Assembly (NCBI GenBank): GCA_035258765.1
Contig: DATFWZ010000733.1
Span: 1-47,336 of the forward strand
DNA length: 47,336 nt
Reading direction: 5' to 3'
Source of the DNA: Gemmataceae bacterium
GTDB taxonomy: Bacteria > Planctomycetota > Planctomycetia > Gemmatales > Gemmataceae
Under the pieces are notes generated by a model, which did no database searches, was not told the origin of the DNA, and worked only from the letters and a program-made list of their open reading frames with translations. The position numbers and the translations under genes were made by a program. How positions within the stretch are numbered: position 1 is the first letter of the stretch; every line of letters begins with the position of its first letter. Below are positions 18,633-44,771 of this stretch, piece by piece.

Positions 18633-18682
18633 GAGATCGAAACGTGTCGGGGCGCCCGCGGCGAACGCCCCGACGGCAATGG

Positions 18683-20487: not shown

Positions 20488-20523
20488 ATTGTTGACCGAA
20501 TCGACCCGAAGGCCCGAGATCCC

Positions 20524-21870: not shown

Positions 21871-21875
21871 CCTGC

Positions 21876-26597: not shown

Positions 26598-26765
26598 CCG
26601 GGTTCCTCGTCGGATTCCGCTGGCGACGAGCGCGGACTTCGTCCCCGTGGGTGCCGGCGGAGCCGTTACCCGGGGCTGCCCGAGCCCAAGAAAGTTGGTC
26701 ATCCATAACCGTCAATCGAAGCGGGGACCCGGCCCATCCAAGGCGCGGGCAACCGGAGAGGTCGA

Positions 26766-28216: not shown

Positions 28217-31200
28217 ATGGCCCGGAAGACCTCGACGAAGCGGCTGGACCGGACGATCAATCGACGGAAGCGGGCGACCCGCGACCGATTCGCCGCCCGG
28301 CGGCCTCGACTCCGATTCGACAACCTGGAAGCCCGCGAGATGCCGGCCGCCTTCAGTCCGGGGAACCTCATCGTCCTTCAGGCCGGCGACAACAACCAAT
28401 ACGCGACGCAGGCTCCGCTCTACCTGAATGAATTGACCCCGGGCGGCAGCTCGGTTCAACAGGCCGCAATCAACAATACCAACGCCGTGGGCGGGACCGG
28501 CAATCAGCCGATCACCATCGACCTGACGGCCGCGGCTGGCAACGGTCAGCTGAACCGCACCTACGACGGGGCCGGACTCGTCTTCGGCGGCGTCGACTCG
28601 GGCGTGAACAACGGCGGGTACACGCCGCCCCAGTCACCCACGGGGAATGCGAACCGCGTGATCGCCGTCGTCGGCAACGACCCCGCGGCTGCCACCTTCG
28701 TCAACACCACGACCTACGGCCCGTTCTACGTCGGCGACGACAACCGCGGCGGGGTTGCCGAGGGCCTGACCGGCCCGGTCTGGGCGTTCGGCCATCCAAA
28801 CCAAGCCGGCGGGGCCGTCTCCCAGGGCGTCCTCTACTTCCCCGGGCCGAACGGGGACGGATCGCTACAGCCGCCGGGCACGGCCGGCATCACCTCCCAG
28901 AGTGGCGTCCAGGTGTCCGGCCAGACCAACATCCGGGGCGGGTTCATCGGGTTCGACAACCGGGTGTACTGGACGACCGCCGGGTCCACCAGCCTGGGCC
29001 TGGCGGGGGTCTACACGTCTACCGTCAAGGCCCTGCCGACAGACAACTCCCCCGGTAACGACCAGCCGATCGTCAAGGCCCTGTTCGCCGCCTCCAAGGT
29101 GGGCGGGATGTACCTGGCCGACGTTAACGGCGACGGGGTCCTGGACAACGGCGACCGGATCTACCTGAACGACGACGGGACGGTCGGCGGGGCCGGGACC
29201 GGCGGTCTGTACATGGCCGTGTTTGACACGACCCGGTGGGGGACTCCGGTGACGGGCCAGGCTGCCGGCTGGAGCCCGATGGTCCGGATCGCCGAAGGCG
29301 TAATCGACGCCCAGCCGACCCCGCAGAATACCGCCCAGCTTCGCGGCCTGGCCGGCACCGTCCTGGCCAACAGCAGCGTCCAGTTGTACGCCAGCGAGTT
29401 TGACAACGTCGCCGGAAACAACAGCTACGTGCTTGGCTGGAACGACGCCACCGGCGGCGTCTTCCGGGTCCAAAGCGCTTCGATCAGCGGCACGACTGCG
29501 ACCATTACCCTGTCCGAAGCTGTCCCGGCCGCGATCCGCGGTACGACCACCTGGCTGTCGGTCAACTCGGTCGGCAGTGGCAGCGGCACCTTCCCCACCG
29601 CCGGCGGCTACAACGGCGTCTGGAACGCCACGGTCAGCGCCGACGGTCTCAGCTTCACGTACACGAACACCAACCCAGGCCTGACCAATCTGAGTGGCAG
29701 CGCCATCGGGAACGGGACGGTCGGCCAGTGGCTCAACACCGGTGCGGTCGGCGGGGTGCTCGACCCGCAACCGGTGCCCGCGGCCTCCCAGATCATCCAG
29801 ACATTGGCCGACGGCACCTTGGCGGCGAACCCGGCCAAGGCCCAGAAGGCTCTCCGCGGTGTGGCCTTCGCCCCGGTCGCGGCCACGACGCTAAGCAGCC
29901 TCGCCGTGGATGGCCTGACGTCGGAGACTGTCCCCCCCAATACCTCAGTTACTTTCAGCGTGCACGTGGCGAACCCCCAGGCGGGGGTGACTCTGACCGG
30001 CCTCAAGGTCACTTTTGTCGACGTGACCACAAACACCGCGCTCGGCCAGGGGACGATCAACGCCAGCGGGGACGCGTCGCTGGCAATCCCGGTGGTCGGT
30101 CAGCACATCGTCAAGGCGTACTTTGCCGGCGGCGGGGCTCAGGCTCTCGCCCCGGTCACGACAGCTTCGACCGTCACCGTGAACGCGTCCGGGGCAACCG
30201 CCTCGTCCACTTCCCTAGCCGTGACCATCGGCGGCGCAGCGACCACCCAGGCCGCCATCGGCCGGGCGGTCACGCTGACCGCCACGGTCACCTCCGGGGC
30301 GACCGGGACCGTCAGCTTCCGCAACGGCACCACCTTGCTCGGCAGCGCGACCATCAGCGCCGGCTCGGCCGTCCTGACCACGTCGTTCTCCGTCGCCGGC
30401 CCGGCCAGCATCACCGCCACGTACAACGGCGACGCCACTTTCGCCACCAGCTCCAGCGGCGCGGCCTCCTTGACGATCGGGAACAACGCCACTGCAGCCA
30501 TCACGACATCGGCGAACAACGTCGCCGTCGGCGCCACCCCGACTTACACCGCGACCCTGACCGGGCCGCTCGGGACCGTGGCCGGGACCGTTCAATTCCT
30601 CCTGGACGGCGTCAACCTGGGCTCGGCCCAGACGCTCAATGGCAGCGGCTCGGCGTCGGTTACCAGCACGGCCCTGACGGCCGGCAGCCACGTCGTCACG
30701 ATCAAGTTCACCCCGGCCGCCACCAGCCCGTATAACGCGTTCAACGTCGATACCGTGACCGCGGCCAACGGGGTGGCCCTGATTGAGACGGCCAGGCAGG
30801 CGCTGACCCCCGGGAATCTGCTCGCCGTCCAGCGGGGCGACGGCACCACCAACCTGGGAAGCTCGGGCTACCTCGTCTTCCTCGACGAATACCGGCCGGA
30901 CGGCACATTGGTCCAGCGGATCGCCCTGCCCAACGCCGATAGCGGCACCACGCACGCCTTGCTGTTGAGCGGTCAGAACGGCGCAGAAGGCCTGCTCCAA
31001 CAGTCCGGTAACGGCCAGTACGTGACCATCGTCGGGTACGACGTGCCGGTTGGCCAGCAGTTTGTCACCTCGACCCAGCCGTACCAGTTCGGCCGCACCA
31101 TTGCCCGCATCGACGCGGCCGGGAACGTCGACACCAGCACCAGCATCACGACCAGCCAGACGGCGATCACGGCCGCGACTTGGGCCGGCGGCGTCGCCAC

Positions 31201-34200
31201 GATCACGGCGGCCAACACCCTCAAGGTGGGCGACCCGGTGACGGTGTCGGGGGTGACGCCGGCGGGCTTCAACGGGACGTTCACGGTCTCCGCGGCCACC
31301 GCGAGCTCGTTCACCTACGCCCTGGCCACCAACCCGGGTGGGGCCGGCACCGCGTTCGGCACGGCCACCGGCCCGTCGGTGCCGTTCAACCCGGAAGACG
31401 TGGTCACCAACGACGGAACTGGGTTCTGGATCGCCAGCAGCACCGGGACGGGCGACACGGTCGACAGCGGCATCCTGTTCGCCCCGCTCGGGGCCTCGAC
31501 GGCCAAGCAGGTGGGCCCGATCAACCACGGGGCCGCGTCAATCGCCATCTATGGGACCGGCGCGAGCGCCCAGCTCGCGGTGGTCAACCGCGGGGCCGGC
31601 GAACTGGGCGTGCCGCAGGGCCTGGCGACTGTGGGCACGGGCTTGCCCCAGACCGGGCTCGGCGTCCAGGCCATCACCACCCTGGTGAACGACGGGACCG
31701 GCACCGTGACCGTGACGCTCGGGGCGGCCCCGAACTTTACGGCCGGAAACCAGGTCGTGATCTCCGGCGCGTCGGTCGCCGCGTACAACGCCGCCTGGCA
31801 GGTGACCGGTGTCAGCGGGAATACGTTCACTTTCTCGGGCGCCCCGGCCGGGGCGGGAAGCGGCACCGGCGGGACCGCGACCGCCAACCAGCTGCTTGCC
31901 AACTTCCCCAACCTGGAGACCGAGTACGAAGCGGTATTCCCGACCGGCCGGCAGCCCGAACAGTTCGTCTTCCTGAACACGAATGACGGCAGCACGAACA
32001 ACCCGAACCTGGCCTACCTGGCCGACCAGGCGTACGGGCTACTCAAGTTCTGGAAAGCCAATGATGGCAACTGGCACCTGGGCCAGCTCGGGTCGCATGC
32101 CTTCGGGCAGAAGCTGGTGTTCGCCGGCGGGGCTACCGGGGTCATAGCGACCATCGTCAACCCGGGCACTCCGCAGGCAAAGGTCAACATCTTCGTCACC
32201 GGGAGTAACGTCCAGCAGGCCAACCCGAACCAGATCGCCGTCTTCCAGGACCAGAATGGGGCCCCGGCGGGCACGTCCGGAACGGGCGTGGACCAGGGCT
32301 TCAGCTCGGGCAATTTCAACACGCTGGCATTCGTCGGCGGCACGCCGGGGCTAGGGACGCCGGCCAGCCCGAACGGGAACATGAACTTCGCCGGGCTGTC
32401 GTTCGTCCCTGGCTTTGTGAGTGGCAACCTGGTGGTGGACCGGGTCGGCACCGGGACGGGCACGCTGTCGAGTAGCGCGACGGCCGGCTTCCTCGACCAG
32501 TACGACCCGACGCAGCCCAACCAGACGGCCACCAAGGGGTCGGTCGCTCTGCCGACCGGCGGCGACGTCTCGACGATCACGGGGGCGACCTGGTCGAACG
32601 GGGTCACCACCATCACCGGTTTCAACGACTACAAGGTCGGCCAGCAGGTGACCGTCTCCGGGGTGACCCCGAGCCTTTACAACGGGACGTTTATCGTCTC
32701 GGGTTTGACCGGCACCACCACTTCGACGATTACCGGGGCCACGTGGGCGAGCGGCCAGGCCACGTTTACCGCGAACAACAGCTACGTGGTCGGCCAGACC
32801 GTCACGGTGACCGGGGTAAATCCGGGCGGCTACAACGGGGCCTGGACGGTGACGTCCGCGACTGCCACGACCTTCACGGTCGCGATGCCGAATAACCCGG
32901 GCACATTTGTGTCCGCCCCGGCAAACGACGCCGTCGGCAGTGCGACCGGGTTCACGTACACGCTGCCGCTCACGGCCGTCGCCACGGCCTCTCGGGCCAC
33001 CGACGCGGTGAATATCACCGCTGCCACCTGGGCGAACACTAACGGCGGCACGGTCACCATCACCGCTGCCAACACGTTCACGGTCGGGCAGACGGTCATC
33101 ATCTCGGGGATCACCCCGACCGGCTACAACGGGACGTTCGTGATCGCGTCCGCAAACGCCACGAGCTTCACCTACCTGCTGCCGACCAACCCCGGCACCG
33201 CCACGGTGACCGGGGCCAAGGCCACCCCCGCGTCTCCGGTCACCAACCTGGCCGACGGGGCAACGTCGACTGCCATCACGGCGGCGAGCACGGCGAGCCA
33301 GACGGCCAACATCGCCTCGGTCAGCAAGGCGGCCGTTGCCGTAAACATCACCGCGGCGAGCTGGTCGGCCGGCAAAGTGACCATCACCGCGGCCAACAGT
33401 TTCGTCGTGGGCCAGGCGGTCACCATCGCTGGCATCACCCCGGCGGGCTTCAACGGCACGTTCACGATTGCAACCGCCACCAGCTCAAGCTTTACGTACA
33501 ACCTGGCGGCGGACCCGGGCACGCCTGTCACCTTTGCGTCCACCGCGACCGCGACGGGATTCACGGCCACCATCACCACCGCCGCCAGCCATAGTTTCAT
33601 CGTCGGCCAGAGCCTGACGATCGCGGGGATCACCCCGGCCGGGTACAACGGGACCTACACGATCGCGTCGGTGCCGTCCGCCACGACGTTCACTTACAAC
33701 TTGCTCGGCGGTGACCCCGGGGCGGGGACTTCGACCGGCACGGCCGCCGGCCTGTTCGCCACGATCTCAGCCAGCACCGGGGTGAACACCGCCCTGGTCG
33801 GGCAGAGCGTAATCGTCGCCAACGTCAACGGGAGCATCAACGGCAACTACAACGGGACCGTCAAGATCACGGCAGCGACGGCCACCACGCTGACGTACGC
33901 CGTCCCCACAGACCCGGGCACGGCCGACCTGACCGCCGGCCCGACCGTCACCTTCAACACGGCGACCGTCACAGCGGCCAACTCGTACGCGGCCGGCAAC
34001 AGCGTCGCCGTCGCCGGCGTCACCGGGGCCACGACGTTCAACGGCGCGTTCCCGGTCGTCTCGGCCAGCCCGACGAGCTTCACTTACTACCTCCCATCGA
34101 ACCCAATCGCGGGCACCAAGTTCGGGGCGGCCAACGTCCTGGGCGCCGTGACGGAAAGCGGGTCGGCGACCGGCGAAGGCTACCTGAGCAACTCGGCCGA

Positions 34201-37200
34201 CGGGCACAGCCTGGTCGTCGCCGGCTACAACCAGACGCCCGGCGGCAGCACGTCGGCCAACAACACCTCGGTCGGCGTAGTCAACCCGGCCGGCGTAATT
34301 GACGTGACCACGCAGATGCCCTCGCAGGGCGGCAGCGTCCGGGCGGTGGCCTCGGCCGACGGCCTGGGGATGTGGGTAGCCACCAACACCGGCATCCGGT
34401 ATGTGCCGTTCGGCAATACCCCGGCTCAGACGGCGATTTCGGCGGCGAGCTGGTCGCCCACCGGTGGCGGGACGGTCACGATCAGCGCGGCCAACAACTT
34501 CGTCGTCGGGCAACTCGTTGCCATCACGGGTGTGACGCCGAGCGGCTACAACGGGGCGGTCACGATCCTGTCGAGGACCGCGACGAGTTTCACGTACGCC
34601 CTCGCCACGAACCCGGGGACCGCGACGAACCTCAGTAGCGCGTTTGTCCAGCCGCTCCCGACCCTGATCACCAACGAGATTGCCTCGGCTCAGGGCCAGG
34701 CGCCCACGGTGGTCGAGATCGGCGCCAGCAACCCGTCCGCCCTGGGAGCCGTCCCGGGCCAGCTGGTCGGCACGGCCGGGGCGCAATTCCAGAACAACGG
34801 CGTTCCGTCGGTGGACGGGCCGTTCTACATCGGCAGCGGCCTCGGCCAGTCCGCCGGGCAGGCGGTCAGCATTCTTGGCACCGGGACGGATCCGAACTGG
34901 CCGGCCGTCCGCGACATATTTAACAACTTCCCGAGCACCAACCAGATCGCCATCAGCCCGAGCGGCAACACCATCGTGGTGGCGGACAGCCGAACCGATA
35001 GCAAGGGCGGTATCCTGGTTTATTTCCAGGCGCTCCAGAATAGTTGGGTCCGGCTGGCCAACCTGCAGCAGGACAACTTCGCCATCACCGCGGCGAGCGA
35101 GCCGGTCACCACGGCCAACATCTCGGCGGTCAGTTTCAACAGCGCGACCATCTCAGCCGCGAACTGGATCAACGGCACCGTGACGATCACGACGTCCGCG
35201 GCCCACGGCTTCGCTGTCGGTCAGAAAGTGATCATCAACGGGTTCACGAACGCCGGTTACAACGGCCAGTTCACCATCGCCTCCGTGCCCAGCTCGACGA
35301 CCTTCACCTACGCGGTCGCCGCGAATCCCGGTACGCCGAGCTTCACCAGCCCGACGGCGACGCTGGCCAACGTGACGGTGACAACGTCGGCCGCTCACAA
35401 CTTCGTCGCGGGCCAGAACGTGACCATCGCCGGGGTGTCGCCGGCGGCGTACGTCGGTACGTTCGCAATCGCGTCCGTGCCGGATTCCACCCACTTCACG
35501 TACGTGCTGACCGCGACGACGAACCCGGGCAGCCCGACGCTGACCAGTGCGACTGCCACGGTCAACTCGTCGGCGACCATTACCACTTCGTCGCCGGTCA
35601 ACTTCACGGTCGGCCAGACGGTGTCGATCTCGGGCGTTGACCTGCCGGCCTACAACACAAATAGCGCTGTCATCACCAGCGTGGCTCCCAGCGGGCTGTC
35701 GTTTACCTACAACCCCGGCTTCAGCAATCTGGCCAGCTCCGGGCCAGGCGTATTCGGTGCTTTTGCCAACGGGCTGGACGGCGGGTTCCGGGCCATCACG
35801 GCCGACTGGAGCAACCCGACTCACCCGGTCCTGTACGCGACCACGACGGCGAGCAGTGGGAACCGGCTCTTCCGGATCCCAATGACGCTGGATGAGACCA
35901 CCGGCACGGCGTCACTGGGCACCCCGGTCCTGCTGGCCACCGCCCCGGCCAACACCGCGTTCCGCGGTGTCGCCTTCGCGCCGACGAACCCCGGGACCAC
36001 CGCGAGCACGACCAGCCTGTCGGTCTCCGGCAGTCCGGGCACTTACGGGGCGGGGGTGAATTTGACAGCGACGGTGACGACCGGCGCCACCGGCTGGGTC
36101 AGCTTCCGGACGACGGGGGGCGTCGAGATCGGGGCCGCCCCGCTCAGCGGCAATACCGCGACGCTGTTCACCACGGCGAATCTGCCGCCCGGTGTCTACA
36201 CCAACGGCATTGTCGCCGTATACACGGGCGACAACACGTTCGCCCCGAGTACGTCGGCGGCGCAGTCGGCGACCATCAACAAGGCGGACACCTCAGTCGG
36301 GCTGGCGTTGACCCCGCCGACTGTCGGAACTGGCCAGACCGAGACGCTCGCGGCAACCGTCACGCCAACGTCAAGCGGTGCCCCGACGGGCACGGTCACC
36401 TTCACCGATACCACGACGAGCACCGTGCTGGGCACGGCCCCCGTGACCCAGGTCATCGTGAATCAGGGTGGCTTCCCGGTGATCACGTTCCAGGCCGTGC
36501 TCGCGACCACGTTTGCGGTCACGGGCAGCCACAGTATCAGTGTTGCGTACAGCGGGGACAGTAACTTCAATAGCAGCACCGGGACGAACACGCTTCAGGT
36601 CGTCCAGTCGACGACGACCACGGTGACGTCTGACAATGCCAACCCGGGCAACAATAATCAGACGCTGAATCTGACGGCCAAGGTGACGGCCTCGAGCGGG
36701 ACCCCGGCAGGTTCGGTCCAGTTCTACGACGGCTCCGTCCCGATCGGGAGCCCGGTAACCCTGAACGTCAGCGGCGTGGCGACGCTCGCGGTCAAGACTG
36801 CCGCCGTCCAGTCGGTGACGATCAAGAGCATCTCGCAATCGACGTCCGCAGGGACGACCACGGTCACGGTCACGACCAACACGACGAACCCGTTCACCGT
36901 CAGCCAGTCGGTGACCATCGAGGGCGTGGCGACCGGCGCCTCGCCCGGGAACCCGGTCCAGGGCGGCTACACGGGCGGCTACAACGGCACGTTCACGGTG
37001 GCCAGCGTCAGCGGGAACCAGTTCACACTGGTGAACAACGCCGCCGCCGGCCTGCCGACCGACACAGTCGGCGGCATGGCGATCGGCCGGGGCGTGTTGA
37101 CTCCCGGCATGCACTCGCTCAGCGCGATCTACAACCCGGGTGCAAACGCCTTCGGCAGCAGCAACGGCATCCACCAGCAGTCTGTACAAACGATCGCCTT

Positions 37201-40200
37201 CGGGGCCAACGATCAGTTCATCGAACGGCTGGGCGACGGCCTGACCGCCCTCAACACCCAGCCCCCGCTGACTTTCAACGGGTCCGTCGGGGCGACCAAC
37301 TTCATCGACGAGTTCACCGCGGCTGGTGTTCTGGTCCAGTCGATCGCGCTGCCCAGTGCCGATTCGCAGAGCTTCGCGATTGCCAGCATCAGCGGGGATG
37401 GGACGACCGTGACGGTGACGACGTCGGCTGCCAACGACCTCGCGACCGGTCAGAAGGTGACCATCGCGGGCGTATCGGGCGGGACCGGCACGTTCAATGG
37501 CGACTTCACAATCACCGTGACCAGTAGCACGACCTTCACCTACTTGGCTTCCGGCAACGGGACCGGGACCGCCACGGGGGCCACGGCCCAGGGGGTAGTC
37601 CACGCGGTGGTCGGCCACGGACAGCAGTCCACCACCGGCCAGGTGACCCTGTCCGGGGACGGGGCATACCTGTTCGTGACCGGGTACGACCAGAACCCGA
37701 ACCCGGCGAGCCCGGGCTATGGCGCGCTCGCGTCGGTGTCGGCCAATACCACTCCGCGGTCGATCGCCCGGATCCGGTTCGACGGCCTGATCGAAACCGA
37801 GGCGTTCACCGCCGGCTCGACCGGAATCGCCACCACCGGCAACTTCAACGCCATCTACAGCCCGGATGGCAGCCGGTTCTATGTCGGCAACGCCGGTACC
37901 GGCAGCATCTACTACTTCTCGTCGTTTAACACGTCCGCCACGCCGCAGGGCAGCAACAGCCTCATCTCGGCGGGCGGTAACTTGTTGAGCACGCCGGGTT
38001 ACAGCGTCATTGGCCTGGAGTCGTACGGCGGCAATCTGTTCGTGATCGGCGGCGGCAGTGGCGCCGGCACCAACTTCCGGGTCGCACAGGTGGGCACCGG
38101 ATTCCCCACGACCAACACGGGGCTGTCCGTCACGCAGCTGCCCGGCATCCCGACCGACACAACAACGCTTGCCCAGCCGATCTTCTTCCCGGTGGACGCC
38201 TACTTCACCCACCTAAACGGCGCCGGCACCGCACTAGACACCATCTACGTTTCCGACAACGGCAGGAACTTCGGCCAGGGGTCGATCACCAAGTGGTCGC
38301 TGGTCGCCGGCAACTGGGTGGAGTCGACGGTCTCGCTGCCGTACTCGAACACCACCGAGCAGCTCGGCTTCTACTATCTGTCCGGCGCCACGAGTGGGAA
38401 TACGGTCACTCTGTACACGAACTACGGCAACGGCGGGAATGCCGACTTCGGGCCGGGCTTCCTGTATTCGATGACCGACGCCTCGGGCTACAACGTCAAC
38501 CCGGGCATCCCGATCTCCGCGGCGAGTTGGTTGGCCGGGACGGTCACCATCACCGCGAACAACAACTACGCCGCCGGGCAGTTCGTGACCATTACCGGCG
38601 TGGCGAATGCAGCCTACAACGGGCGGTTCGTCATCACCTCGGCGAACGCCACCAGCTTCACCTACGCCCTGGCCTCGGACCCGGGTGCGTCCGGCAGCGT
38701 GACTGGGGCCAAGGCCCTGTCGATCAACACGGTGTCCAAGGTGGCCCCCGGCCCGGTCGGCGGGCCGTGGTACGGCAACGAGACGTTCCGCGGCGTTGCG
38801 GCCGCCGCGAAGGCGATCGCCACGACCTCGACCCTGACGCTGAACGGTATCTCGCCGACGACAGCTGGCCTGTCCATCGAGATCGGGTACAACCCGACGG
38901 TCACGGCTCAGGTCACCCCGGCCGGAGGGCCGGTGTCCAACCTGAGCGGGCTGACCGTTCAGATCCTCGATACCAGCAACGGCAACGCCGTGGTCGGCAC
39001 TGGCACCCTGGACGCAACCGGCAAGGCGACGATCACCCTGACGACCGGCACCGGGGCCGGCCAGTTGAACACCGGCAGCCACAACCTGGTCGTCTCGTTC
39101 GCCGCAGCGTCCACGTTCGCCGGCAGCCAGTCGGCCCCCCAGAATCAGGTGATCGACGCCGTCTTCAAGGTCGACACCCTGGTCCAGACGGCCACCGGGT
39201 ACGTGGCCACGTTCAACGCCTTGGTCAACCCCGCCAACCTGAACATTAACGCGGCCACTGCACCGTCGGCCAAGCTCGTGACCGGGTCGACCCCGGTCGG
39301 CGGGTCGGTCGTGTTCGACAGCGTCCCGACCCAGGCGACGTTTGTCGGGACCGGGACGTTCGTCACGGGTGTGCCGCTGGCCAAGACACTGACCGGCGGC
39401 GCCAGCTACACCGCCACCGTGGCCGGGACCGGAACCAACGCCTTCTTCGACACCCTCGGCCACGTCCTGGGGAGCAGCACCAGCACCGGCGGGTCCGATT
39501 TCATCAACACCTTCACTTCCTCGAACAGCACGACGGCCGCGATCGTTAGCGCCCCGTTCCTGGCCCGCGGATTCCACCAGGCGGTTAACCTCCCGGCGAA
39601 CACCTCCAGCGGGCTGCCGATCAGCATCAGCATCCCGGCCGGCGGGTCGGCCGTGACGTCAGCCTCCTTCGACGTCTTCTTCAACACGGCGGACCTGACG
39701 GTGACCGGCGGGTCGATCACGGCCGCGGGGTTCACCGGCACAGTGACCGTCGTCACCCCCGGCCAGGTCCACATCACCCTCAGCGGCGGCAGCCTGGCCG
39801 CCGGCACCACGACGACCGTGGCCAGCCTGACCGCCAGCGTTCCCGACACCGCCCCGTACAAGAACAAGGAGATCCTGGACGTCCGCAACATCTCGATCAA
39901 CGGCGGGACGAACAACGGCCTGGACGGCAGCGCGGTCCACGTCGCGGCCTTCGTCGGCGATACCGACGGGTCGAAGTCCTACACCGCCCAGGACGCGTTC
40001 AACGTCAACCAGGTGGCGGTCGGGACGGCCCCGGGCTTCTCGGCTTACCAGTTGCTCTCCCCGATCATCATCGGCGACACCAACACGGATGGGGCGGTGA
40101 ACGCCCAGGACGCGTTCAACGCCAACCAGGTGGCGGTCGGCAACACGAGTGCGGGCATCCCGGCCCTGCCGACCTTCAACATCACCACCGCGACCGAAGC

Positions 40201-43200
40201 CGGCACGACGGTGACCATCACGACCTCGACGGCGCACAACTTCACCGTCGGCGAGCAGGTCACGATCAGCGGCGTGTCGGTGTCCGGGTACAACGGCACG
40301 TTCGCGATCACCGGGGTGACGGCCACGACCTTCACCTACACCGCCGCCGCCGGCCTGGCCAGCGGCACCGGGGGGACCGCGGCGGCTGCCAGCCCGGCCG
40401 CCGGCGGCCCCGACCCGAAGCTGTATTTCCTCGACGTGTCCGCAACGCCCGGTTCCACGGTCACCGTGCCGGTCTTCCTGGACATCAACGACCCGGCCGG
40501 GCTCACTTACAACTCGGACGACATCGGGATCATCTTCGACCCGACGAAGTTCTCCGTGTCCAACGTCCGCAGCGGTAACTACTCCAGCACCCTGATGCCG
40601 GCGTCCAGCATCAGCACGGCCTCGAACGTCGATAACGTGGCCGGCACGATCCGGATCGGCCAGTTCTACAATCTGGCCACCGCCCCGTTCCTCCCGAACG
40701 GGACGAGCGGGCAGATTGTCCTGATGGACGTCACAGTCCTCGCCGGGGTTACGGCGGGGACGAACACGCCGCTGAATTTGGCCGCAAACGTCTCCGCCAC
40801 CGTCACCGAGGTCAACGGCGGGGCGGCAACGCTTAATCCGGCCCCGACCAACGCCTCGAACGACGCGGTAGACGCCACGTTCCACGTCGTCGCCCCATCC
40901 GCCACCCTGTCCTTCCCGAACGCCAGCAGCAGCGGCGGGTCGACGATCACGGTCCCGGTCAACCTGACGTCTGGGCCGGGCGGGTTCACCTACAACTCCG
41001 ACGACCTGGGCGTCACGTTCGACCCGACCAAGCTCCAGGTGCAAAGCGTCAGCAGCGGCGACTACCCCGGCATCGGGTCGACTAACATCAGCACTGCGTT
41101 TAACATCAACAACACCGCTGGCACGATCCGGATCGGCCAGTTCTTCAACCAGGCCACCGCCCCGTTCCTGCCCGCCGGAACGACTGGGCCCATCGCCAAC
41201 ATCACGTTCATGGTCCTGTCCTCGGCCCCGGCCGGGCCGACGTTCCTGGACCTGGCCCAGAACGTCTCCTTGACCTTCACCGACGTCAACGGCGGGGCGA
41301 TCGTTCTCAACCCGGCGCCGACAAACGCCACCAACGATCCGGGGGTGGACGGCGTCTTTACCGTCACCGTCCAGCCGAATCAGCCGCCGTTCGACTCGGT
41401 GCCCGCAGCCTCGGCGATCCCCAAGACGCTATTCAACCCGCAGGCCATCACCGGGCTGACCGACCCGACCCCGAACGTGCTGACGCTCTCGGGCAGTAAT
41501 GCGATCGTGGTGTCCGACCCGGACGCCGGGACTGCGAACGTGACGACCACCGTCAGCCTGACCGGGAGCCCGGTCCTCGGATCGACCGGCCCGGTCGGGA
41601 TCCTGACCCTGGCCAGCACCACTGGTTTGACGGTCAGCGGGAACAACACGGCGTCAGTCACGCTGACCGGCAAGATCACCGACATCAACACGGCCCTGAA
41701 TGGGCTGAAGTACACGCCGGGCGCCGGGTTCTTCGGCACCGCGACCCTGACCGTCTCGACCAACGACAACGGCAACAGCGGCTTCGGCGGGCCGATGACC
41801 GATACCCGGTCCACGAGCATGACCGTGGTGGGGCTGTTCTTGAGCGAGATCGACCTGAACTCGAACAGCACCCTGAGCGCGCCGAGCGCGAACCAGTACC
41901 TGGAAATACTCTCGTCGGTGCCGAACTACACCATCCCGAGCGGGGTGTTCGTGGTCGGGATCGAGGGGAACAATTCGCAAGTCGCGGACGCGTTTGGCAA
42001 TAGCACAACCAACAACCCCGGGGCGGTGCAAGACGTTTTCAACCTGACCGGGTTCACCACCGGATCGAACGGCTACCTGGCGCTGCTGGAGAAGGGCCAG
42101 GCGTACTCCTCCGCCGCGGGGGTCGTCAACTCGGCCGGGAATGTCGTGACCAACAGCGGCACTCAGTCGGGCTTCGGGAACGGCGGCGGGTCGAGTGTAT
42201 TCGGGTCGCTGACCGGGGTTCACACCGGTAAGGACCAGAACGCAGTGGGAGTCCGTCTGGGGACCAACCCGGACCTGCCGGGCGACGGGGCGACCGCCGC
42301 CGGGGAACTCTCCTGGGATATGGAACAGGGCTCGGCCAGCTACCTGCTGATCCAGGCCCCGAGCGCCCCGGTGGTGCAGACCTCCACCACCACGGCGACA
42401 GACATCGACGGCAACAACGATGGCGTCCCCGACGGCACGGCCTACGCCTCTTGGAACGTGATCGACGGCGTCGGCGTTCTGGCCGCCCCGCTCTCCCCGA
42501 CGCTCGGAGGGACGTACACCCAGCTCGGGAACGACTTCACCTACGCCCCGCTGACATTCAAGGACAGCACGAACACCGGCGCCGTGCTGACCGGCTCGAA
42601 CCTGGTGACCGTGCCATTCACGGCGAGCTACCTCGGACGGATCAGCCAGTTCACCGGGTCGTCGTCGGCCGACTGGTTGGCCAGCGTCCCGACGGGCTCG
42701 GCCGGCCTGTTCACGCTGGGGGCTGGGACCGCGACCTCGAACACGAACTACTCCGGCCAGAGGCTCAACCACATCGGCGGCCCGAACTTCTGGGCCGACC
42801 AGATGAAGGTGGTGGTGAACGACGGGACAAACGCCCAGCACGCACAGGTCGGCGAGTTGACCCTGACCTTCGCGGCGCCCGTCACCCTGGCCGGGACCCC
42901 GGACCGGTTCCAGATCACCTCCGCGGTAGATAACGGTGCCACGCTCAATACCGCGACGGTCACCACCTCGGCCGCCCACGACTTCCAGGTCGGCCAGACG
43001 ATTAACATCATCGGGGTGACGGGGACCGGTTGGAACGGTAACAAGGTGATCACCGCCCTGACCTCCACCACGATCACGTTCGCCCGGGGATTAATCACCG
43101 CGAACGGGACCACCGGCGCCTCTTCGTTCGCCCAGGCCACCGGGTCGCTGAACACCAGCTTCCGGAACATTTTCCAAGTGCTCTCGACGGCGAGCATCAG

Positions 43201-43876
43201 CACGCTGAGCGAAGCGGGGACGACGGTGACCGTCACAACCACGGCCCCGCACAACTTCTCGACCGGCGAGCAGGTGACGGTCAGCGGGGCCAGCGTCTCG
43301 GGGTACAACGGGACCTTCACCATTACCGGGGTGACGGCCAACACGTTCACCTACACGGCCGCCAGCTCGGGGCTGGCCCCAGGCACCGGTGGCACGGCAG
43401 GCGTCCCGGTGAACCTCACGTTCACCATCCCGACCGGCGGGGGGACGTATATCAGCGCCACCGGGGTGGCAAACAACGTCACCGTGCTGGTGGTTCGGTT
43501 CCTGGCCACTGACAATCTGACGGTCAACTTCACGAACGCCGATCCGGGCGGGAACAAGGTGGGCCTGGCCGACGGCAACTACTTCCTGAAGACAGACGCC
43601 ACCAAGGTGACCGACTCCCAGGGCAAGCAGCTCGACGGCGACCGGGACGGGAACTTCGGCGGGAATGGAAACGACGAGTTCTGGCGGCTGTACGGGGACT
43701 TCGACGGCAATCGCCGGGTGGACGGGTCCGACAACCGGATCTTCAACTCGACGTTCAACACTGGTACCGGCAACGCGGCCTATTTGTGGTACGCCGACTT
43801 CGACCTGAGCGGGCTGATCGACACGACCGACCGGACCCAGTTCCGGAATCGGCTGTTCACGATCCTGAATCCGTGA
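28217..43876 (+). CDS. Giant (5,219 aa) modular cell-surface/extracellular protein: propeller-like supermodules, ~70-aa beta-domain repeats, Ig-like arrays, cohesin-like and dockerin modules, lamin-tail-like domain
   Basis: A single uninterrupted ORF. The ATG is preceded by GGAGAG at 5 nt. Composition is strongly biased to T/G/A/S/N/V. Recognisable modules are listed as separate features below. Confidence 0.9.
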   Translation: MARKTSTKRLDRTINRRKRATRDRFAARRPRLRFDNLEAREMPAAFSPGNLIVLQAGDNNQYATQAPLYLNELTPGGSSVQQAAINNTNAVGGTGNQPITIDLTAAAGNGQLNRTYDGAGLVFGGVDSGVNNGGYTPPQSPTGNANRVIAVVGNDPAAATFVNTTTYGPFYVGDDNRGGVAEGLTGPVWAFGHPNQAGGAVSQGVLYFPGPNGDGSLQPPGTAGITSQSGVQVSGQTNIRGGFIGFDNRVYWTTAGSTSLGLAGVYTSTVKALPTDNSPGNDQPIVKALFAASKVGGMYLADVNGDGVLDNGDRIYLNDDGTVGGAGTGGLYMAVFDTTRWGTPVTGQAAGWSPMVRIAEGVIDAQPTPQNTAQLRGLAGTVLANSSVQLYASEFDNVAGNNSYVLGWNDATGGVFRVQSASISGTTATITLSEAVPAAIRGTTTWLSVNSVGSGSGTFPTAGGYNGVWNATVSADGLSFTYTNTNPGLTNLSGSAIGNGTVGQWLNTGAVGGVLDPQPVPAASQIIQTLADGTLAANPAKAQKALRGVAFAPVAATTLSSLAVDGLTSETVPPNTSVTFSVHVANPQAGVTLTGLKVTFVDVTTNTALGQGTINASGDASLAIPVVGQHIVKAYFAGGGAQALAPVTTASTVTVNASGATASSTSLAVTIGGAATTQAAIGRAVTLTATVTSGATGTVSFRNGTTLLGSATISAGSAVLTTSFSVAGPASITATYNGDATFATSSSGAASLTIGNNATAAITTSANNVAVGATPTYTATLTGPLGTVAGTVQFLLDGVNLGSAQTLNGSGSASVTSTALTAGSHVVTIKFTPAATSPYNAFNVDTVTAANGVALIETARQALTPGNLLAVQRGDGTTNLGSSGYLVFLDEYRPDGTLVQRIALPNADSGTTHALLLSGQNGAEGLLQQSGNGQYVTIVGYDVPVGQQFVTSTQPYQFGRTIARIDAAGNVDTSTSITTSQTAITAATWAGGVATITAANTLKVGDPVTVSGVTPAGFNGTFTVSAATASSFTYALATNPGGAGTAFGTATGPSVPFNPEDVVTNDGTGFWIASSTGTGDTVDSGILFAPLGASTAKQVGPINHGAASIAIYGTGASAQLAVVNRGAGELGVPQGLATVGTGLPQTGLGVQAITTLVNDGTGTVTVTLGAAPNFTAGNQVVISGASVAAYNAAWQVTGVSGNTFTFSGAPAGAGSGTGGTATANQLLANFPNLETEYEAVFPTGRQPEQFVFLNTNDGSTNNPNLAYLADQAYGLLKFWKANDGNWHLGQLGSHAFGQKLVFAGGATGVIATIVNPGTPQAKVNIFVTGSNVQQANPNQIAVFQDQNGAPAGTSGTGVDQGFSSGNFNTLAFVGGTPGLGTPASPNGNMNFAGLSFVPGFVSGNLVVDRVGTGTGTLSSSATAGFLDQYDPTQPNQTATKGSVALPTGGDVSTITGATWSNGVTTITGFNDYKVGQQVTVSGVTPSLYNGTFIVSGLTGTTTSTITGATWASGQATFTANNSYVVGQTVTVTGVNPGGYNGAWTVTSATATTFTVAMPNNPGTFVSAPANDAVGSATGFTYTLPLTAVATASRATDAVNITAATWANTNGGTVTITAANTFTVGQTVIISGITPTGYNGTFVIASANATSFTYLLPTNPGTATVTGAKATPASPVTNLADGATSTAITAASTASQTANIASVSKAAVAVNITAASWSAGKVTITAANSFVVGQAVTIAGITPAGFNGTFTIATATSSSFTYNLAADPGTPVTFASTATATGFTATITTAASHSFIVGQSLTIAGITPAGYNGTYTIASVPSATTFTYNLLGGDPGAGTSTGTAAGLFATISASTGVNTALVGQSVIVANVNGSINGNYNGTVKITAATATTLTYAVPTDPGTADLTAGPTVTFNTATVTAANSYAAGNSVAVAGVTGATTFNGAFPVVSASPTSFTYYLPSNPIAGTKFGAANVLGAVTESGSATGEGYLSNSADGHSLVVAGYNQTPGGSTSANNTSVGVVNPAGVIDVTTQMPSQGGSVRAVASADGLGMWVATNTGIRYVPFGNTPAQTAISAASWSPTGGGTVTISAANNFVVGQLVAITGVTPSGYNGAVTILSRTATSFTYALATNPGTATNLSSAFVQPLPTLITNEIASAQGQAPTVVEIGASNPSALGAVPGQLVGTAGAQFQNNGVPSVDGPFYIGSGLGQSAGQAVSILGTGTDPNWPAVRDIFNNFPSTNQIAISPSGNTIVVADSRTDSKGGILVYFQALQNSWVRLANLQQDNFAITAASEPVTTANISAVSFNSATISAANWINGTVTITTSAAHGFAVGQKVIINGFTNAGYNGQFTIASVPSSTTFTYAVAANPGTPSFTSPTATLANVTVTTSAAHNFVAGQNVTIAGVSPAAYVGTFAIASVPDSTHFTYVLTATTNPGSPTLTSATATVNSSATITTSSPVNFTVGQTVSISGVDLPAYNTNSAVITSVAPSGLSFTYNPGFSNLASSGPGVFGAFANGLDGGFRAITADWSNPTHPVLYATTTASSGNRLFRIPMTLDETTGTASLGTPVLLATAPANTAFRGVAFAPTNPGTTASTTSLSVSGSPGTYGAGVNLTATVTTGATGWVSFRTTGGVEIGAAPLSGNTATLFTTANLPPGVYTNGIVAVYTGDNTFAPSTSAAQSATINKADTSVGLALTPPTVGTGQTETLAATVTPTSSGAPTGTVTFTDTTTSTVLGTAPVTQVIVNQGGFPVITFQAVLATTFAVTGSHSISVAYSGDSNFNSSTGTNTLQVVQSTTTTVTSDNANPGNNNQTLNLTAKVTASSGTPAGSVQFYDGSVPIGSPVTLNVSGVATLAVKTAAVQSVTIKSISQSTSAGTTTVTVTTNTTNPFTVSQSVTIEGVATGASPGNPVQGGYTGGYNGTFTVASVSGNQFTLVNNAAAGLPTDTVGGMAIGRGVLTPGMHSLSAIYNPGANAFGSSNGIHQQSVQTIAFGANDQFIERLGDGLTALNTQPPLTFNGSVGATNFIDEFTAAGVLVQSIALPSADSQSFAIASISGDGTTVTVTTSAANDLATGQKVTIAGVSGGTGTFNGDFTITVTSSTTFTYLASGNGTGTATGATAQGVVHAVVGHGQQSTTGQVTLSGDGAYLFVTGYDQNPNPASPGYGALASVSANTTPRSIARIRFDGLIETEAFTAGSTGIATTGNFNAIYSPDGSRFYVGNAGTGSIYYFSSFNTSATPQGSNSLISAGGNLLSTPGYSVIGLESYGGNLFVIGGGSGAGTNFRVAQVGTGFPTTNTGLSVTQLPGIPTDTTTLAQPIFFPVDAYFTHLNGAGTALDTIYVSDNGRNFGQGSITKWSLVAGNWVESTVSLPYSNTTEQLGFYYLSGATSGNTVTLYTNYGNGGNADFGPGFLYSMTDASGYNVNPGIPISAASWLAGTVTITANNNYAAGQFVTITGVANAAYNGRFVITSANATSFTYALASDPGASGSVTGAKALSINTVSKVAPGPVGGPWYGNETFRGVAAAAKAIATTSTLTLNGISPTTAGLSIEIGYNPTVTAQVTPAGGPVSNLSGLTVQILDTSNGNAVVGTGTLDATGKATITLTTGTGAGQLNTGSHNLVVSFAAASTFAGSQSAPQNQVIDAVFKVDTLVQTATGYVATFNALVNPANLNINAATAPSAKLVTGSTPVGGSVVFDSVPTQATFVGTGTFVTGVPLAKTLTGGASYTATVAGTGTNAFFDTLGHVLGSSTSTGGSDFINTFTSSNSTTAAIVSAPFLARGFHQAVNLPANTSSGLPISISIPAGGSAVTSASFDVFFNTADLTVTGGSITAAGFTGTVTVVTPGQVHITLSGGSLAAGTTTTVASLTASVPDTAPYKNKEILDVRNISINGGTNNGLDGSAVHVAAFVGDTDGSKSYTAQDAFNVNQVAVGTAPGFSAYQLLSPIIIGDTNTDGAVNAQDAFNANQVAVGNTSAGIPALPTFNITTATEAGTTVTITTSTAHNFTVGEQVTISGVSVSGYNGTFAITGVTATTFTYTAAAGLASGTGGTAAAASPAAGGPDPKLYFLDVSATPGSTVTVPVFLDINDPAGLTYNSDDIGIIFDPTKFSVSNVRSGNYSSTLMPASSISTASNVDNVAGTIRIGQFYNLATAPFLPNGTSGQIVLMDVTVLAGVTAGTNTPLNLAANVSATVTEVNGGAATLNPAPTNASNDAVDATFHVVAPSATLSFPNASSSGGSTITVPVNLTSGPGGFTYNSDDLGVTFDPTKLQVQSVSSGDYPGIGSTNISTAFNINNTAGTIRIGQFFNQATAPFLPAGTTGPIANITFMVLSSAPAGPTFLDLAQNVSLTFTDVNGGAIVLNPAPTNATNDPGVDGVFTVTVQPNQPPFDSVPAASAIPKTLFNPQAITGLTDPTPNVLTLSGSNAIVVSDPDAGTANVTTTVSLTGSPVLGSTGPVGILTLASTTGLTVSGNNTASVTLTGKITDINTALNGLKYTPGAGFFGTATLTVSTNDNGNSGFGGPMTDTRSTSMTVVGLFLSEIDLNSNSTLSAPSANQYLEILSSVPNYTIPSGVFVVGIEGNNSQVADAFGNSTTNNPGAVQDVFNLTGFTTGSNGYLALLEKGQAYSSAAGVVNSAGNVVTNSGTQSGFGNGGGSSVFGSLTGVHTGKDQNAVGVRLGTNPDLPGDGATAAGELSWDMEQGSASYLLIQAPSAPVVQTSTTTATDIDGNNDGVPDGTAYASWNVIDGVGVLAAPLSPTLGGTYTQLGNDFTYAPLTFKDSTNTGAVLTGSNLVTVPFTASYLGRISQFTGSSSADWLASVPTGSAGLFTLGAGTATSNTNYSGQRLNHIGGPNFWADQMKVVVNDGTNAQHAQVGELTLTFAAPVTLAGTPDRFQITSAVDNGATLNTATVTTSAAHDFQVGQTINIIGVTGTGWNGNKVITALTSTTITFARGLITANGTTGASSFAQATGSLNTSFRNIFQVLSTASISTLSEAGTTVTVTTTAPHNFSTGEQVTVSGASVSGYNGTFTITGVTANTFTYTAASSGLAPGTGGTAGVPVNLTFTIPTGGGTYISATGVANNVTVLVVRFLATDNLTVNFTNADPGGNKVGLADGNYFLKTDATKVTDSQGKQLDGDRDGNFGGNGNDEFWRLYGDFDGNRRVDGSDNRIFNSTFNTGTGNAAYLWYADFDLSGLIDTTDRTQFRNRLFTILNP
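29881..30780 (+). other. Array of about three bacterial Ig-like (group-3-like) domains inside the giant protein
   Basis: Contains units such as TSLAVTIGGAATTQAAIGRAVTLTATVTSGATGTVSFRNGTTLLGSATISAGSAVLTTSFSVAGPASITATYNGDATFATSSS. This is the classic x-LTATV-x-GTVxF-x-G-x-A-x-L-x-G-x-ITAxYxGD pattern. Boundaries are approximate. Confidence 0.6.
32576..34140 (+). repeat. Tandem array of seven ~70-aa coding repeats (consensus I-T-[AG]-A-[TS]-W-x-G-x-V-T-I-T-x(4-6)-F-x-V-G-Q-x-V-T-I-x-G-[VI]-x-P-x-G-[YF]-N-G-T-[FW]-x-[IV]-x-S-x(4-5)-F-T-Y-x(4-5)-P-G)
   Basis: Read directly from the translation. Example: ITAASWSAGKVTITAANSFVVGQAVTIAGITPAGFNGTFTIATATSSSFTYNLAADPGTP. Further dispersed copies start near 29483, 31166, 31673, 34436, 36821, 37379, 38513, 40181, 42914 and 43196. 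Confidence 0.75.
35150..35745 (+). repeat. Second tandem array (three copies) of the same ~70-aa repeat
   Basis: Contains ISAANWINGTVTITTSAAHGFAVGQKVIINGFTNAGYNGQFTIASVPSSTTFTYAVAANPG, then ..NFVAGQNVTIAGVSPAAYVGTFAIASVPDSTHFTYVL.., then ..NFTVGQTVSISGVDLPAYNTNSAVITSVAPSGLSFTYNPG. Confidence 0.7.
35995..36825 (+). other. Second array of about three Ig-like domains
   Basis: Contains TSLSVSGSPGTYGAGVNLTATVTTGATGWVSFRTTGG..., LAATVTPTSSGAPTGTVTFTDTTT...SISVAYSGDSNFNSS and LNLTAKVTASSGTPAGSVQFYDGS... Boundaries are approximate. Confidence 0.6.
39535..41370 (+). other. Cohesin-like 1, internal two-segment dockerin (39950-40145), one ~70-aa repeat, cohesin-like 2, cohesin-like 3
   Basis: Dockerin Ca-loops are DTDGSKSYTAQD plus helix AFNVNQVAVG, and DTNTDGAVNAQD plus helix AFNANQVAVG. 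Cohesin-like units are LYFLDVSATPGSTVTVPVFLDINDPAGLTYNSDDIGIIFDPTKFSV...GTIRIGQF...IVLMDVTVLAGVTAGT and its paralog TLSFPNASSSGGSTITVPVNLTSGPGGFTYNSDDLGVTFDPTKLQV...GTIRIGQF...IANITFMVLSSAPAG. Confidence 0.6.
41826..42360 (+). other. Lamin-tail-like (LTD) domain candidate
   Basis: The segment LFLSEIDLNSNSTLSAPSANQYLEILSSVPNYTIPSGVFVVGIEGNN...SNGYLALLEKG resembles the ISEI...EFIEL...L opening and closing strands of LTD domains. The end is poorly defined. Confidence 0.4.
43691..43873 (+). other. C-terminal type-I-like dockerin of the giant protein
   Basis: There are two EF-hand-like loops, each followed by a helix: DFDGNRRVDGSD-NRIFNSTF and DFDLSGLIDTTD-RTQFRNRL. They fit the D-x-[DN]-x-[DNS]-x(3)-D-x-x-D spacing of dockerin repeats. 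Confidence 0.7.
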
Positions 43877-43894
43877 TGAACGGATCGACCTGTC

Positions 43895-43922
43895 GCCCGG
43901 TGCCGGTGCACCGGCACCGGGC
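43895..43922 (+). terminator. Perfect 28-nt GC-rich palindrome 19 nt after the giant-gene stop (possible terminator or RNA-stabilising hairpin)
   Basis: GCCCGGTGCCGGTGCACCGGCACCGGGC is its own reverse complement. It would form a 12-bp stem with a 4-nt loop. No U-tract follows, so the terminator function is uncertain. Confidence 0.35.
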
Positions 43923-44009
43923 CCTGGAGTCGCAAGCGTTTGGAGTGAACTTCACCCGCCCGAACTTGATTGAGACCACCGCGGCTTCGACTATCCAAGG
44001 ACGACATCC

Positions 44010-44660
44010 ATGCGAACTCGTTTGCTGATCGTGCTGGCCGGTCTGATCTGGGTGTTAGCCGGCGGCCGAGCCGAGGCGGGCTACCAGTTCCAGTTCACGA
44101 ACTCGGCGGGGGTTGCGACCAACGCCTTCGTGATCGACCAGGGTTCGACGATCGACATCCGCGTCTACCTGGTGCAGACCAGTCCGGACACCGGACTGAG
44201 CGGCAGCGGCCTGGACGCCGCGGGGACCAGGTTGACGTTCAACCAGACGATCGCCAACGTGGCGAGCACCGGCGCGATCACGGCAAACCCCGCGTTTGAC
44301 TTCGCAACGAAAAGTACGGGCACCGGGTCGGCGTCATTGAACCTGACGCAGGACAGTGGCTCGGCCCCGGTGACCGCTCCGACCAGTGGAGCCGACGCGA
44401 ACCGGATCCTGATCGGGACGTTCACCTTCACAGGAGTGAACGCCGGTACCACCACTGTATTGACGTCCGACCCGCACCTCCTGAGCGACGATAACGTCTT
44501 GCACAACGGTTCGGTCCTCGATTCGATGATCGCCAACTCGAGTGCGGCCATTACCGTGAACGCCATCCCCGAACCGGGCACCCTGGTGCTAACCGGGCTG
44601 TTCGCCGCCGGCTTGGCCGCGGCAAGTATCCGCCGGCTTCGTCGTCCAGCCGTCGGCTAA
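44010..44660 (+). CDS. PEP-CTERM sorting-domain protein with a cohesin-like beta-rich body
   Basis: The ATG is preceded by AAGGA. Signal peptide: MRTRLLIVLAGLIWVLAGGRAEA. C-terminus: IPEPGTLVLTGLFAAGLAAASIRRLRRP, that is a PEP motif, a TM helix and a basic cluster. Confidence 0.85.
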   Translation: MRTRLLIVLAGLIWVLAGGRAEAGYQFQFTNSAGVATNAFVIDQGSTIDIRVYLVQTSPDTGLSGSGLDAAGTRLTFNQTIANVASTGAITANPAFDFATKSTGTGSASLNLTQDSGSAPVTAPTSGADANRILIGTFTFTGVNAGTTTVLTSDPHLLSDDNVLHNGSVLDSMIANSSAAITVNAIPEPGTLVLTGLFAAGLAAASIRRLRRPAVG

Positions 44661-44680: not shown

Positions 44681-44724
44681 CCCCTGCCGATTGGTCCGAC
44701 CCCCGGCAGGGGGTCATCCGTTTT
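44681..44724 (+). terminator. Rho-independent-like terminator after the PEP-CTERM gene
   Basis: A 10-bp stem forms between CCCCCTGCCG (44681-44690) and CGGCAGGGGG (44704-44713) with a 13-nt loop. TCATCCGTTTT follows. Confidence 0.5.
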
Positions 44725-44771
44725 CATGTGGGCGTCCGGCTCAGTCCCGTTTTATCAACGGTGCAACGCGA

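Follow-up and report, generated by a model that had tools for sequence, protein, structure and literature searches.

Analysis of a 47,336-nucleotide (nt) stretch of DNA from a Gemmataceae bacterium of the Planctomycetota (the entire contig DATFWZ010000733.1, with a GC content of 66%; hereafter the window) revealed two adjacent plus-strand genes, the first encoding a giant protein of 5219 amino acids (aa) that ends in a dockerin (28217..43876; open reading frame (ORF) list, translation and Pfam) and the second encoding a small protein of 216 aa without cysteine (44010..44660; ORF and translation), which combines a signal peptide, a body with a predicted cohesin fold and a PEP-CTERM sorting tail. 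The pairing of the two genes recurs in related genomes and is the strongest result of the analysis. The small protein is probably an exosortase-sorted mini-cohesin that holds cargo proteins with a dockerin tail on the cell surface or within the exopolysaccharide layer. Such a tether had been suggested in an earlier note on this DNA (the original prediction), and that interpretation is supported by the predicted cohesin fold, the conserved adjacency and an exosortase in relatives, while two of its arguments fared poorly, namely a by-eye similarity of the small protein to the cohesins of the giant protein, which lacks statistical support, and an internal dockerin in the giant protein, which proved weak.

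Conservation of the gene pair

In 10 of the 11 informative loci, the gene that directly precedes the small one has the same dockerin subtype at its end, the ten being the window, L001 (one locus with L002 and L003), L004, L005, L006-8 (L006, L007 and L008 being one locus), L010, L011, L013, L015, which is a Thermoguttaceae locus, and L016. Identity of the small protein to that of the window is 86% in L004, 47% in L005, 45% in L001, 40% in L006-8, 34% in L010 and 28% in L011, so that the conserved adjacency on which the original prediction had staked the tether holds strongly down to 28% identity. The dockerin-tailed ORF ends 3-170 nt upstream of the small gene in these ten loci, with the dockerin lying within a few residues of the stop codon, and profile A5 of the tail, applied to L001-L016 (loci fetched via the small gene), matches no ORF other than the one that directly precedes the small gene. 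On three further contigs, for which gene tables only were used, a Big_3_5 protein of >5000 aa ends 110-130 nt upstream; one of these three proteins carries Dockerin_1 and another carries Cohesin.

The bodies of the cargo proteins are unrelated to each other and include giant adhesin-like Big_3_5 proteins, a 2587-aa ORF, a 2401-aa Calx-beta protein and a 1179-aa PPC/DUF7453/Amidase_2 protein. Variable cargo with a constant pair is what a tag and its receptor would be expected to show. No Pfam-type cohesin turned up in the C-terminal 3290 aa of the giant protein of L001, and the cargo of L015 and L016 has none according to Pfam; internal cohesins are therefore not conserved in the cargo, and the constant elements are the tail and the small gene. 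Internal cohesins were accordingly rejected as the universal partner of the tail, being undetected in several cargo proteins that keep both the tail and the small gene. The divergence of the tails is correlated with that of the small proteins (Mantel r=0.60, p=0.003; without the closest pair r=0.39, p=0.03), which is compatible with co-evolution, but confounded by shared ancestry.

The C-terminal dockerin of the giant protein

The giant protein ends in a two-segment dockerin (43691..43855, plus strand; Pfam, AlphaFold2 and Foldseek), in which each calcium (Ca)-loop-like motif, DFDGNRRVDGSD at 43697-43732 and DFDLSGLIDTTD at 43796-43831, is followed by a helix, and both loops are of the EF-hand-like type (D-x-D/N-x-D/N/S ... 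D at position 12). Scanned alone, the last 99 aa match Pfam Dockerin_1 (PF00404) with 24.7 bits, above the gathering cut-off of 22.9 (E=2.7e-5), over profile positions 1-56 of 57; the same tail scores only 15.3 bits within a 1219-aa query. An AlphaFold2 model of the last 99 aa, built from alignment A6 of 118 homologous tails, has a predicted local distance difference test score (pLDDT) of 93.6, with helices H50-59 and H83-90 beginning at the loop ends. Searched by Foldseek against structures of the Protein Data Bank (PDB), this model has dockerins as all of its 17 best matches; those at ranks 1-11 are of type II, from scaffoldins (3kcp, 4fl4, 2y3n_B, 5g5d and 2b59), and superpose with a root mean square deviation of 1.3-2.0 A over 45-62 alignment columns. 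The E-values of these matches are modest (2.5e-3 and weaker), which is usual for a domain of ~57 residues. The canonical two-segment dockerin that had been read from the letters at this end of the protein is thus borne out by both profile and structure comparison.

The tail belongs to a planctomycete-specific subtype with the consensus FFRLFGDxDGDRxVD...YLWYFDxDxDGxID...F, the profile of which matches the dockerin of the window at 1.5e-29. The subtype has 138 database matches at E<=0.001, always at the C-terminus, and PF00404 is carried by about half of 120 homologous tails among the matches listed. In the upstream ORF piece of L005 the tail is split into residues 303-340 and 418-453 by an insert of ~77 aa that resembles an FCCH-like repeat, an arrangement that recalls giant proteins of Omnitrophota in which dockerin helices flank a beta-barrel (bioRxiv 10.1101/2023.11.21.568195).

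The small PEP-CTERM protein and its family

The stop codon of the giant gene (TGA, 43874-43876) and the ATG of the small gene (44010) are separated by a spacer of 133 nt, which contains a Shine-Dalgarno-like AAGGA at 43997-44001. A Sec signal peptide (44010..44078, plus strand), MRTRLLIVLAGLIWVLAGGRAEA, ends in AEA directly before a G, and its residue A23 is invariant in 26 homologues. It is followed by a beta-rich body of 163 aa (residues 24-186; 44079..44567, plus strand) and by a PEP-CTERM tail (44568..44660, plus strand) with the PEP motif, a hydrophobic helix, RRLRR and the stop codon; this C-terminus, IPEPGTLVLTGLFAAGLAAASIRRLRRPAVG, reads IPEP-GTLVLTGLFAAGLAAASI-RRLRR-PAVG, and residues P187, E188 and P189 are invariant in the family alignment A1. 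The protein thus has, besides the signal peptide, the C-terminal PEP motif, transmembrane helix and basic cluster by which PEP-CTERM proteins are defined (Haft et al., 2006; PMC1569441). The gap of 133 nt, the signal peptide, the cysteine-free beta-rich body and the PEP-CTERM tail had all been put forward in the original prediction and agree with the coordinates and the sequence.

Regarding the distribution of the family, 32 close homologues are nearly all of 205-240 aa and have an invariant PEP motif. An exhaustive profile search returned 2101, 700 and 93 clusters at 50% identity for E<=1e-3, E<=1e-10 and E<=1e-30, respectively, some of the weakest matches being perhaps to the tail only. The small protein of the window has no Pfam match at E<=1 and sub-threshold matches to NCBIfam models of the PEP-CTERM tail; among 150 family members scanned with Pfam, PEP-CTERM (PF07589) is found in 109 and no other family recurs. 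Named members occur in Gemmata algarum, where NCBI annotates a "PEP-CTERM sorting domain-containing protein", and in a Thermoguttaceae metagenome-assembled genome. A scan of the genome collection with A1 gave no match, and a scan with P0046 matched only Gemmata algarum itself and the PEP-CTERM tails of unrelated proteins from other phyla. Both independent assemblies of Gemmata algarum (JC673 and JC717; L014/L019 and L030) break <200 nt after the small gene, which hints at a repeat-rich, possibly giant, gene at that position.

Predicted cohesin fold of the small-protein body

The structure of the small protein was predicted with AlphaFold2 from 26 homologues (A1) and compared with the PDB by Foldseek. 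The model has a mean pLDDT of 84, with values >90 over most of the body, and its nine main strands form a predicted beta-sandwich of the nine-stranded, jelly-roll type that characterizes cohesins. Cohesin modules take all of the first 14 places among its PDB matches, with E-values from 3e-7 to 1e-5 and target-normalised template modelling (TM) scores of 0.59-0.75 against single-module cohesin chains; examples are 1g1k_A (E=3.4e-7, TM 0.69), 2vo8 (TM 0.75) and the non-cellulosomal archaeal cohesin 2xdh. The cohesin fold that the original prediction had attributed to this body was therefore recovered in the structure comparison.

The by-eye likeness from which that attribution had been drawn, between the small body and the cohesin modules of the giant protein, has no statistical support. 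BLASTP of the small protein against the cohesin region of the giant protein gave only E>1; Pfam on the isolated body (residues 24-186) gave no Cohesin match at E<=10, so that the body lies outside the sequence profile of Pfam Cohesin (PF00963), which was matched by 0 of 150 family members; and the family hidden Markov models A1 (26 homologues) and A3 (150) had no match among PDB sequences. Alignment of A3 with four giant-type cohesin modules by hhalign reached a probability of 3% over 29 columns, and the sole stretch aligned is the pair that had been picked out by eye, "ILIGTFTFTGVNAGT" and "IVLMDVTVLAGVTAGT" (given also as NRILIGTFTFTGVNAGT and SGQIVLMDVTVLAGVTAGT). On the structural model, the body would be a cohesin-fold domain, yet one that is not filed under Pfam Cohesin.

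Exosortase in syntenic relatives

In L001 the DNA 7 kb downstream of the small gene encodes a tetratricopeptide repeat (TPR) protein and a 543-aa exosortase. The latter is of XrtU type and matches the model of the XrtU C-terminal domain (NF033780) with 145 bits (cut-off 40) and the EpsH model TIGR02602 with 117 bits (cut-off 105.55). A TPR protein and an exosortase are likewise found 10 kb downstream of the small gene on the P0013 contig. Downstream of the small gene, the window contains genes for two DUF1559/N-methyl proteins and a small CarboxypepD_reg-like protein, and since the relatives share this run of DUF1559 and small genes before their exosortase, an exosortase would be expected just beyond the end of the window. 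The run, at 44803-47265, is the onset of an array in which DUF1559/N-methyl (pseudopilin-like) genes alternate with small CarboxypepD_reg-like genes, and the same array separates the small gene from the TPR and exosortase pair in relatives.

Modules and N-terminus of the giant protein

According to Pfam, the giant protein contains Big_3_5 Ig-like domains, FCCH-like repeats and three cohesin modules in addition to the C-terminal dockerin. Scanned individually against the Pfam Cohesin gathering score of 24.1 bits, the cohesin modules score 24.2 bits (39569..39958), 31.6 bits (40415..40900) and 54.9 bits (40901..41386; all plus strand), and the third also matches 4ums_A, a solved ScaB cohesin (phmmer, E=3.5e-4). 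A dockerin-like segment (39929..40171, plus strand), with the motifs GDTDGSKSYTAQDA and GDTNTDGAVNAQDA, reaches 13.9 bits with Dockerin_1 (E=0.065), under the cut-off, matches 6kg9_A at E=0.24 (phmmer) and is not recognised by profile A5 of the C-terminal tail subtype (independent E-value 53). Of the internal cohesins and internal dockerin that had been attributed to the giant protein, the cohesins are confirmed and the dockerin is weak, so that there is little ground for the self-networking of the giant protein that had been suggested along with them. Glycoside hydrolases, carbohydrate-binding modules (CBMs), surface-layer homology (SLH) domains and LPXTG motifs were not found by Pfam in either the giant or the small protein.

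A module of ~75 aa is present in many copies throughout the giant ORF, roughly "ITAASW.GGTVTITAANNF.VGQ.VTI.GVTP.GYNGTFTI.S....SFTY". It matches Pfam E1_FCCH (the ubiquitin-E1 FCCH domain, PF16190) weakly, with a best E-value of 5.5e-10, and is probably an undescribed family of bacterial surface repeats.

The N-terminus of the giant protein (residues 1-45; 28217..28351, plus strand) has no classical hydrophobic signal peptide and is rich in arginine, with an "LE(A/D/E)R" motif (RLRFDNLEAREMPAA). An Arg-rich N-terminus followed by LE(D/E)R..L is also found in the upstream ORFs of L008, L011, L015 and L016, and RIERLEDRTLLDG and FESLEDRRLLAG are further examples of cargo N-termini. Judging from these sequences, the Arg-rich LE(D/E)R N-terminus may be a planctomycete export signal common to large surface cargo proteins.

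Proposed mechanism and alternative explanations

In the proposed mechanism, the first gene would provide a large secreted cargo with a Ca-binding dockerin at its extreme C-terminus. The product of the second gene (~215 aa) would be exported by the Sec route and then fold into a single cohesin-type beta-sandwich, whereupon the exosortase would remove the PEP-CTERM helix and fix the mini-cohesin to the outer envelope or the exopolysaccharide. The retained mini-cohesin would bind the dockerin of the cargo in a Ca-dependent manner and so keep the cargo on the cell surface. Binding of the tail by the mini-cohesin is itself fairly likely, and we infer both the contact and its dependence on Ca, as well as the place of the small protein after exosortase processing. 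More tentatively, the pair could exemplify a general two-tier display pathway in Planctomycetota, in which XrtU-processed mini-cohesins would be the sockets for a C-terminal dockerin tag on otherwise unrelated secreted proteins.

Several observations weigh against this tether. The body of the small protein lacks cohesin homology at the sequence level, so the fold match could be to a generic beta-sandwich, and integrin, BslA and adhesin sandwiches do appear lower in the same Foldseek list. The Pfam-type cohesins of the window's own giant protein are alternative partners for the tail. The exosortase that the original prediction had called for was found in two syntenic relatives, 7-10 kb downstream of the small gene, and not within the window (Pfam and NCBIfam), the 3' end of which lies 2.7 kb beyond the small gene. 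Regarding the pairing, the upstream neighbour of the small gene in Gemmata algarum encodes a GntR regulator, and in two loci approached from the dockerin side, L017 and L018, both on long contigs, no gene of the small family lies within 6 kb, so that the tail is not always beside a partner. Dockerin tails probably outnumber adjacent sockets, which would fit either one socket serving several cargo proteins or tails with other partners. Furthermore, neither the chemistry of the exosortase nor the final site of attachment of PEP-CTERM proteins has been established by experiment (PMC1569441; PMC4960237).

Some of these points would be explained if the two proteins were co-expressed without binding each other, which we consider unlikely. 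The small protein would then be a PEP-CTERM matrix or structural protein with a generic beta-sandwich, the adjacency would result from joint regulation or export, and the tail would bind the giant protein's own cohesins (self-networking), cohesins elsewhere, or calcium or polysaccharide. The small body's lack of sequence similarity to cohesins, the three bona fide cohesin modules of the window's giant protein and the tails of L017 and L018 without an adjacent small gene are as this explanation would have them, and the 138 matches to the tail subtype (E<=0.001) may outnumber any single partner. Against it, the pairing persists where no internal cohesin is recognisable (L015, L016 and the last 3290 aa of L001), the tail ends the upstream ORF in all but one of the informative loci despite unrelated cargo, and the best structural matches of the small body are specifically cohesins and not generic Ig or fibronectin domains. 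A different role, as a transient partner in the periplasm or during export, is improbable. The small protein would in that case act as a chaperone or secretion adaptor, or prevent self-association from occurring too early, and its PEP-CTERM helix would hold it in the inner membrane until processing. This explanation is worth keeping because the cargo N-termini have no hydrophobic signal peptide and share the Arg-rich LE(D/E)R motif instead; the one-to-one pairing of the genes also resembles cognate partner systems. Known cohesin-dockerin pairs are stable assembly contacts, however, and the neighbourhood is an exopolysaccharide export locus. The fate of processed PEP-CTERM proteins is not established (PMC4960237), but they are believed to be directed to the cell surface, and outer-membrane fractions of a bacterium of the Planctomycetes-Verrucomicrobia-Chlamydiae group were found to contain some of them (PMC1569441; PMC4960237). 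That the small ORF or its cohesin likeness is meaningless, arising from chance adjacency or an annotation artefact, is hardly credible: long spurious ORFs are common at a GC content of 66%, but the ~700 homologous clusters at E<=1e-10 with constant length, conserved signal peptide and PEP tail, the confident structure model and the conserved synteny already refute it, and a spurious ORF or chance adjacency was rejected on these homologue and synteny data.

Exopolysaccharide locus and other features of the window

Upstream of the gene pair, at 526..26702 and mostly on the minus strand, lies an exopolysaccharide biosynthesis and export locus that was judged complete by Pfam and NCBIfam, so that the polysaccharide setting described in the original prediction is correct and the window contains the exopolysaccharide genes expected of PEP-CTERM systems. 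The locus encodes glycosyltransferases, a flippase-like protein, Wza (20524-21870, on the plus strand), CpsB phosphatase, a Wzz/tyrosine autokinase, a WecA-like priming transferase and a Wzy-like polymerase with fused TPR repeats. Three right-handed beta-helix (NosD-like) proteins are encoded in a row within it (10896-16086, minus strand), and these may be polysaccharide lyases, epimerases or depolymerases.

Regarding the intergenic regions, a GC-rich 12-bp hairpin without a T-run lies ~20 nt past the stop codon of the giant gene (43895..43922, plus strand; z=-2.85 for the fold of the spacer). In L004, L001 and L005 this position is likewise occupied by a hairpin, the sequence of which differs (compensatory changes). 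The element may terminate transcription in part or stabilise the mRNA, and thereby set how much giant relative to small transcript is made. After the small gene, a consensus scan found a terminator-like hairpin with a T-rich tail (44698..44725, plus strand), a weak call as one such site is also expected from shuffled sequence. In several relatives (L016, 10776-13064; the P0009 and P0013 contigs) the small gene is directly followed by a gene for an Exo_endo_phos protein of 760-1165 aa, which also carries Big_3_5 or faint dockerin matches; the window contains no gene of this kind.

Implications

PEP-CTERM/exosortase sorting is widespread in environmental Gram-negative bacteria, and the function of its substrates is known in very few cases. 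If the proposed tether is correct, a family of substrates that are docking modules would give the system a concrete and testable role in surface display, and would explain how planctomycetes retain giant adhesin-like proteins without other recognisable anchors at the surface or in the matrix. Cohesin-dockerin assembly would be extended to a new anchoring chemistry and a phylum-wide context, and the general pathway, if real, would correspond in Gram-negative bacteria to the cohesins anchored by sortase or SLH domains. The unannotated cohesin-fold family (~700 clusters at 50% identity, E<=1e-10) and the planctomycete dockerin tag can be used for genome annotation and pull-downs, and orthogonal cohesin-dockerin pairs are of practical interest for synthetic protein scaffolds.

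Comparison with known systems

In cellulosomes, where cohesin-dockerin pairs are stable assembly contacts, a type II dockerin at the C-terminus of the scaffoldin (e.g. the XDoc of C. thermocellum CipA) is bound by the type II cohesins of the SLH-anchored proteins SdbA, OlpB and Orf2p, while in Ruminococcus flavefaciens the sortase-anchored ScaE plays the role of the scaffoldin-anchoring cohesin. The pair described here resembles this anchoring in that a large multi-module, cohesin-bearing protein, here a giant one, ends in a C-terminal dockerin, in that the cohesin, here a predicted cohesin fold, is on a separate envelope-targeted protein, and in that the best PDB matches of the tail are type II scaffoldin dockerins (3kcp, 4fl4, 2b59, 5g5d and 2y3n). 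It differs in using a PEP-CTERM/exosortase signal in a diderm planctomycete instead of SLH or LPXTG/sortase anchoring in a Firmicute, in having as its anchor a single domain of ~160 aa without sequence similarity to Pfam Cohesin, in cargo without cellulases or CBMs, and in the position of the anchor gene directly downstream of each cargo gene. Going by Pfam, the giant and small proteins do not constitute a cellulosome, and the parallel is in mechanism only.

Cohesin and dockerin modules outside cellulosomes were reportedly surveyed by Peer et al. in 2009. The present pair likewise has cohesin and dockerin folds outside cellulose degradation, and structures of this kind are among its matches, 2xdh and 2vo8 being among the best for the small protein and 2ozn_B being one of those for the tail; 2xdh is a cohesin of Archaeoglobus fulgidus, and 2ozn belongs to the NagH/NagJ toxin complexes of C. 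perfringens. A parallel within the phylum is the "planctosome" hypothesised for Nemodlikiaceae, a cohesin-dockerin surface complex in Planctomycetes without a role in cellulose degradation (Andrei et al., 2019; PMC6461901). Both are hypothesised, non-cellulolytic surface complexes of planctomycetes; the planctosome differs in its anchoring through a lamin-tail domain on a 2210-aa protein, its recruitment of peptidases and its Pfam-recognisable cohesins, and has neither a PEP-CTERM/exosortase component nor a conserved gene pair of cargo and mini-cohesin.

PEP-CTERM proteins are diverse, mostly of unknown function, and usually encoded by single genes after long spacers (PMC1569441). Agreement with PEP-CTERM/exosortase (EpsH) sorting comes from the signal peptide and C-terminal tail of the small protein, the exopolysaccharide locus and the exosortase in syntenic relatives, whereas the small gene, 133 nt after its cargo gene, is unlike those of typical PEP-CTERM proteins (Haft et al., 2006), as is the predicted presence of an identifiable protein-binding fold in the passenger domain. 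In the literature searched (full text, with incomplete coverage, so that this is not proof of absence), no PEP-CTERM-anchored cohesin was found and no paper combines PEP-CTERM with dockerin, or with both cohesin and dockerin, while the one paper that mentions both exosortase and cohesin deals with them as separate topics.

Thus, the type of interaction, between cohesin and dockerin, is known, also outside cellulosomes, and what we propose as new are the anchoring route, the divergent mini-cohesin family and the conserved gene pair of cargo and socket. The conservation of this pair suggests an undescribed way of tethering proteins to the Gram-negative cell surface.

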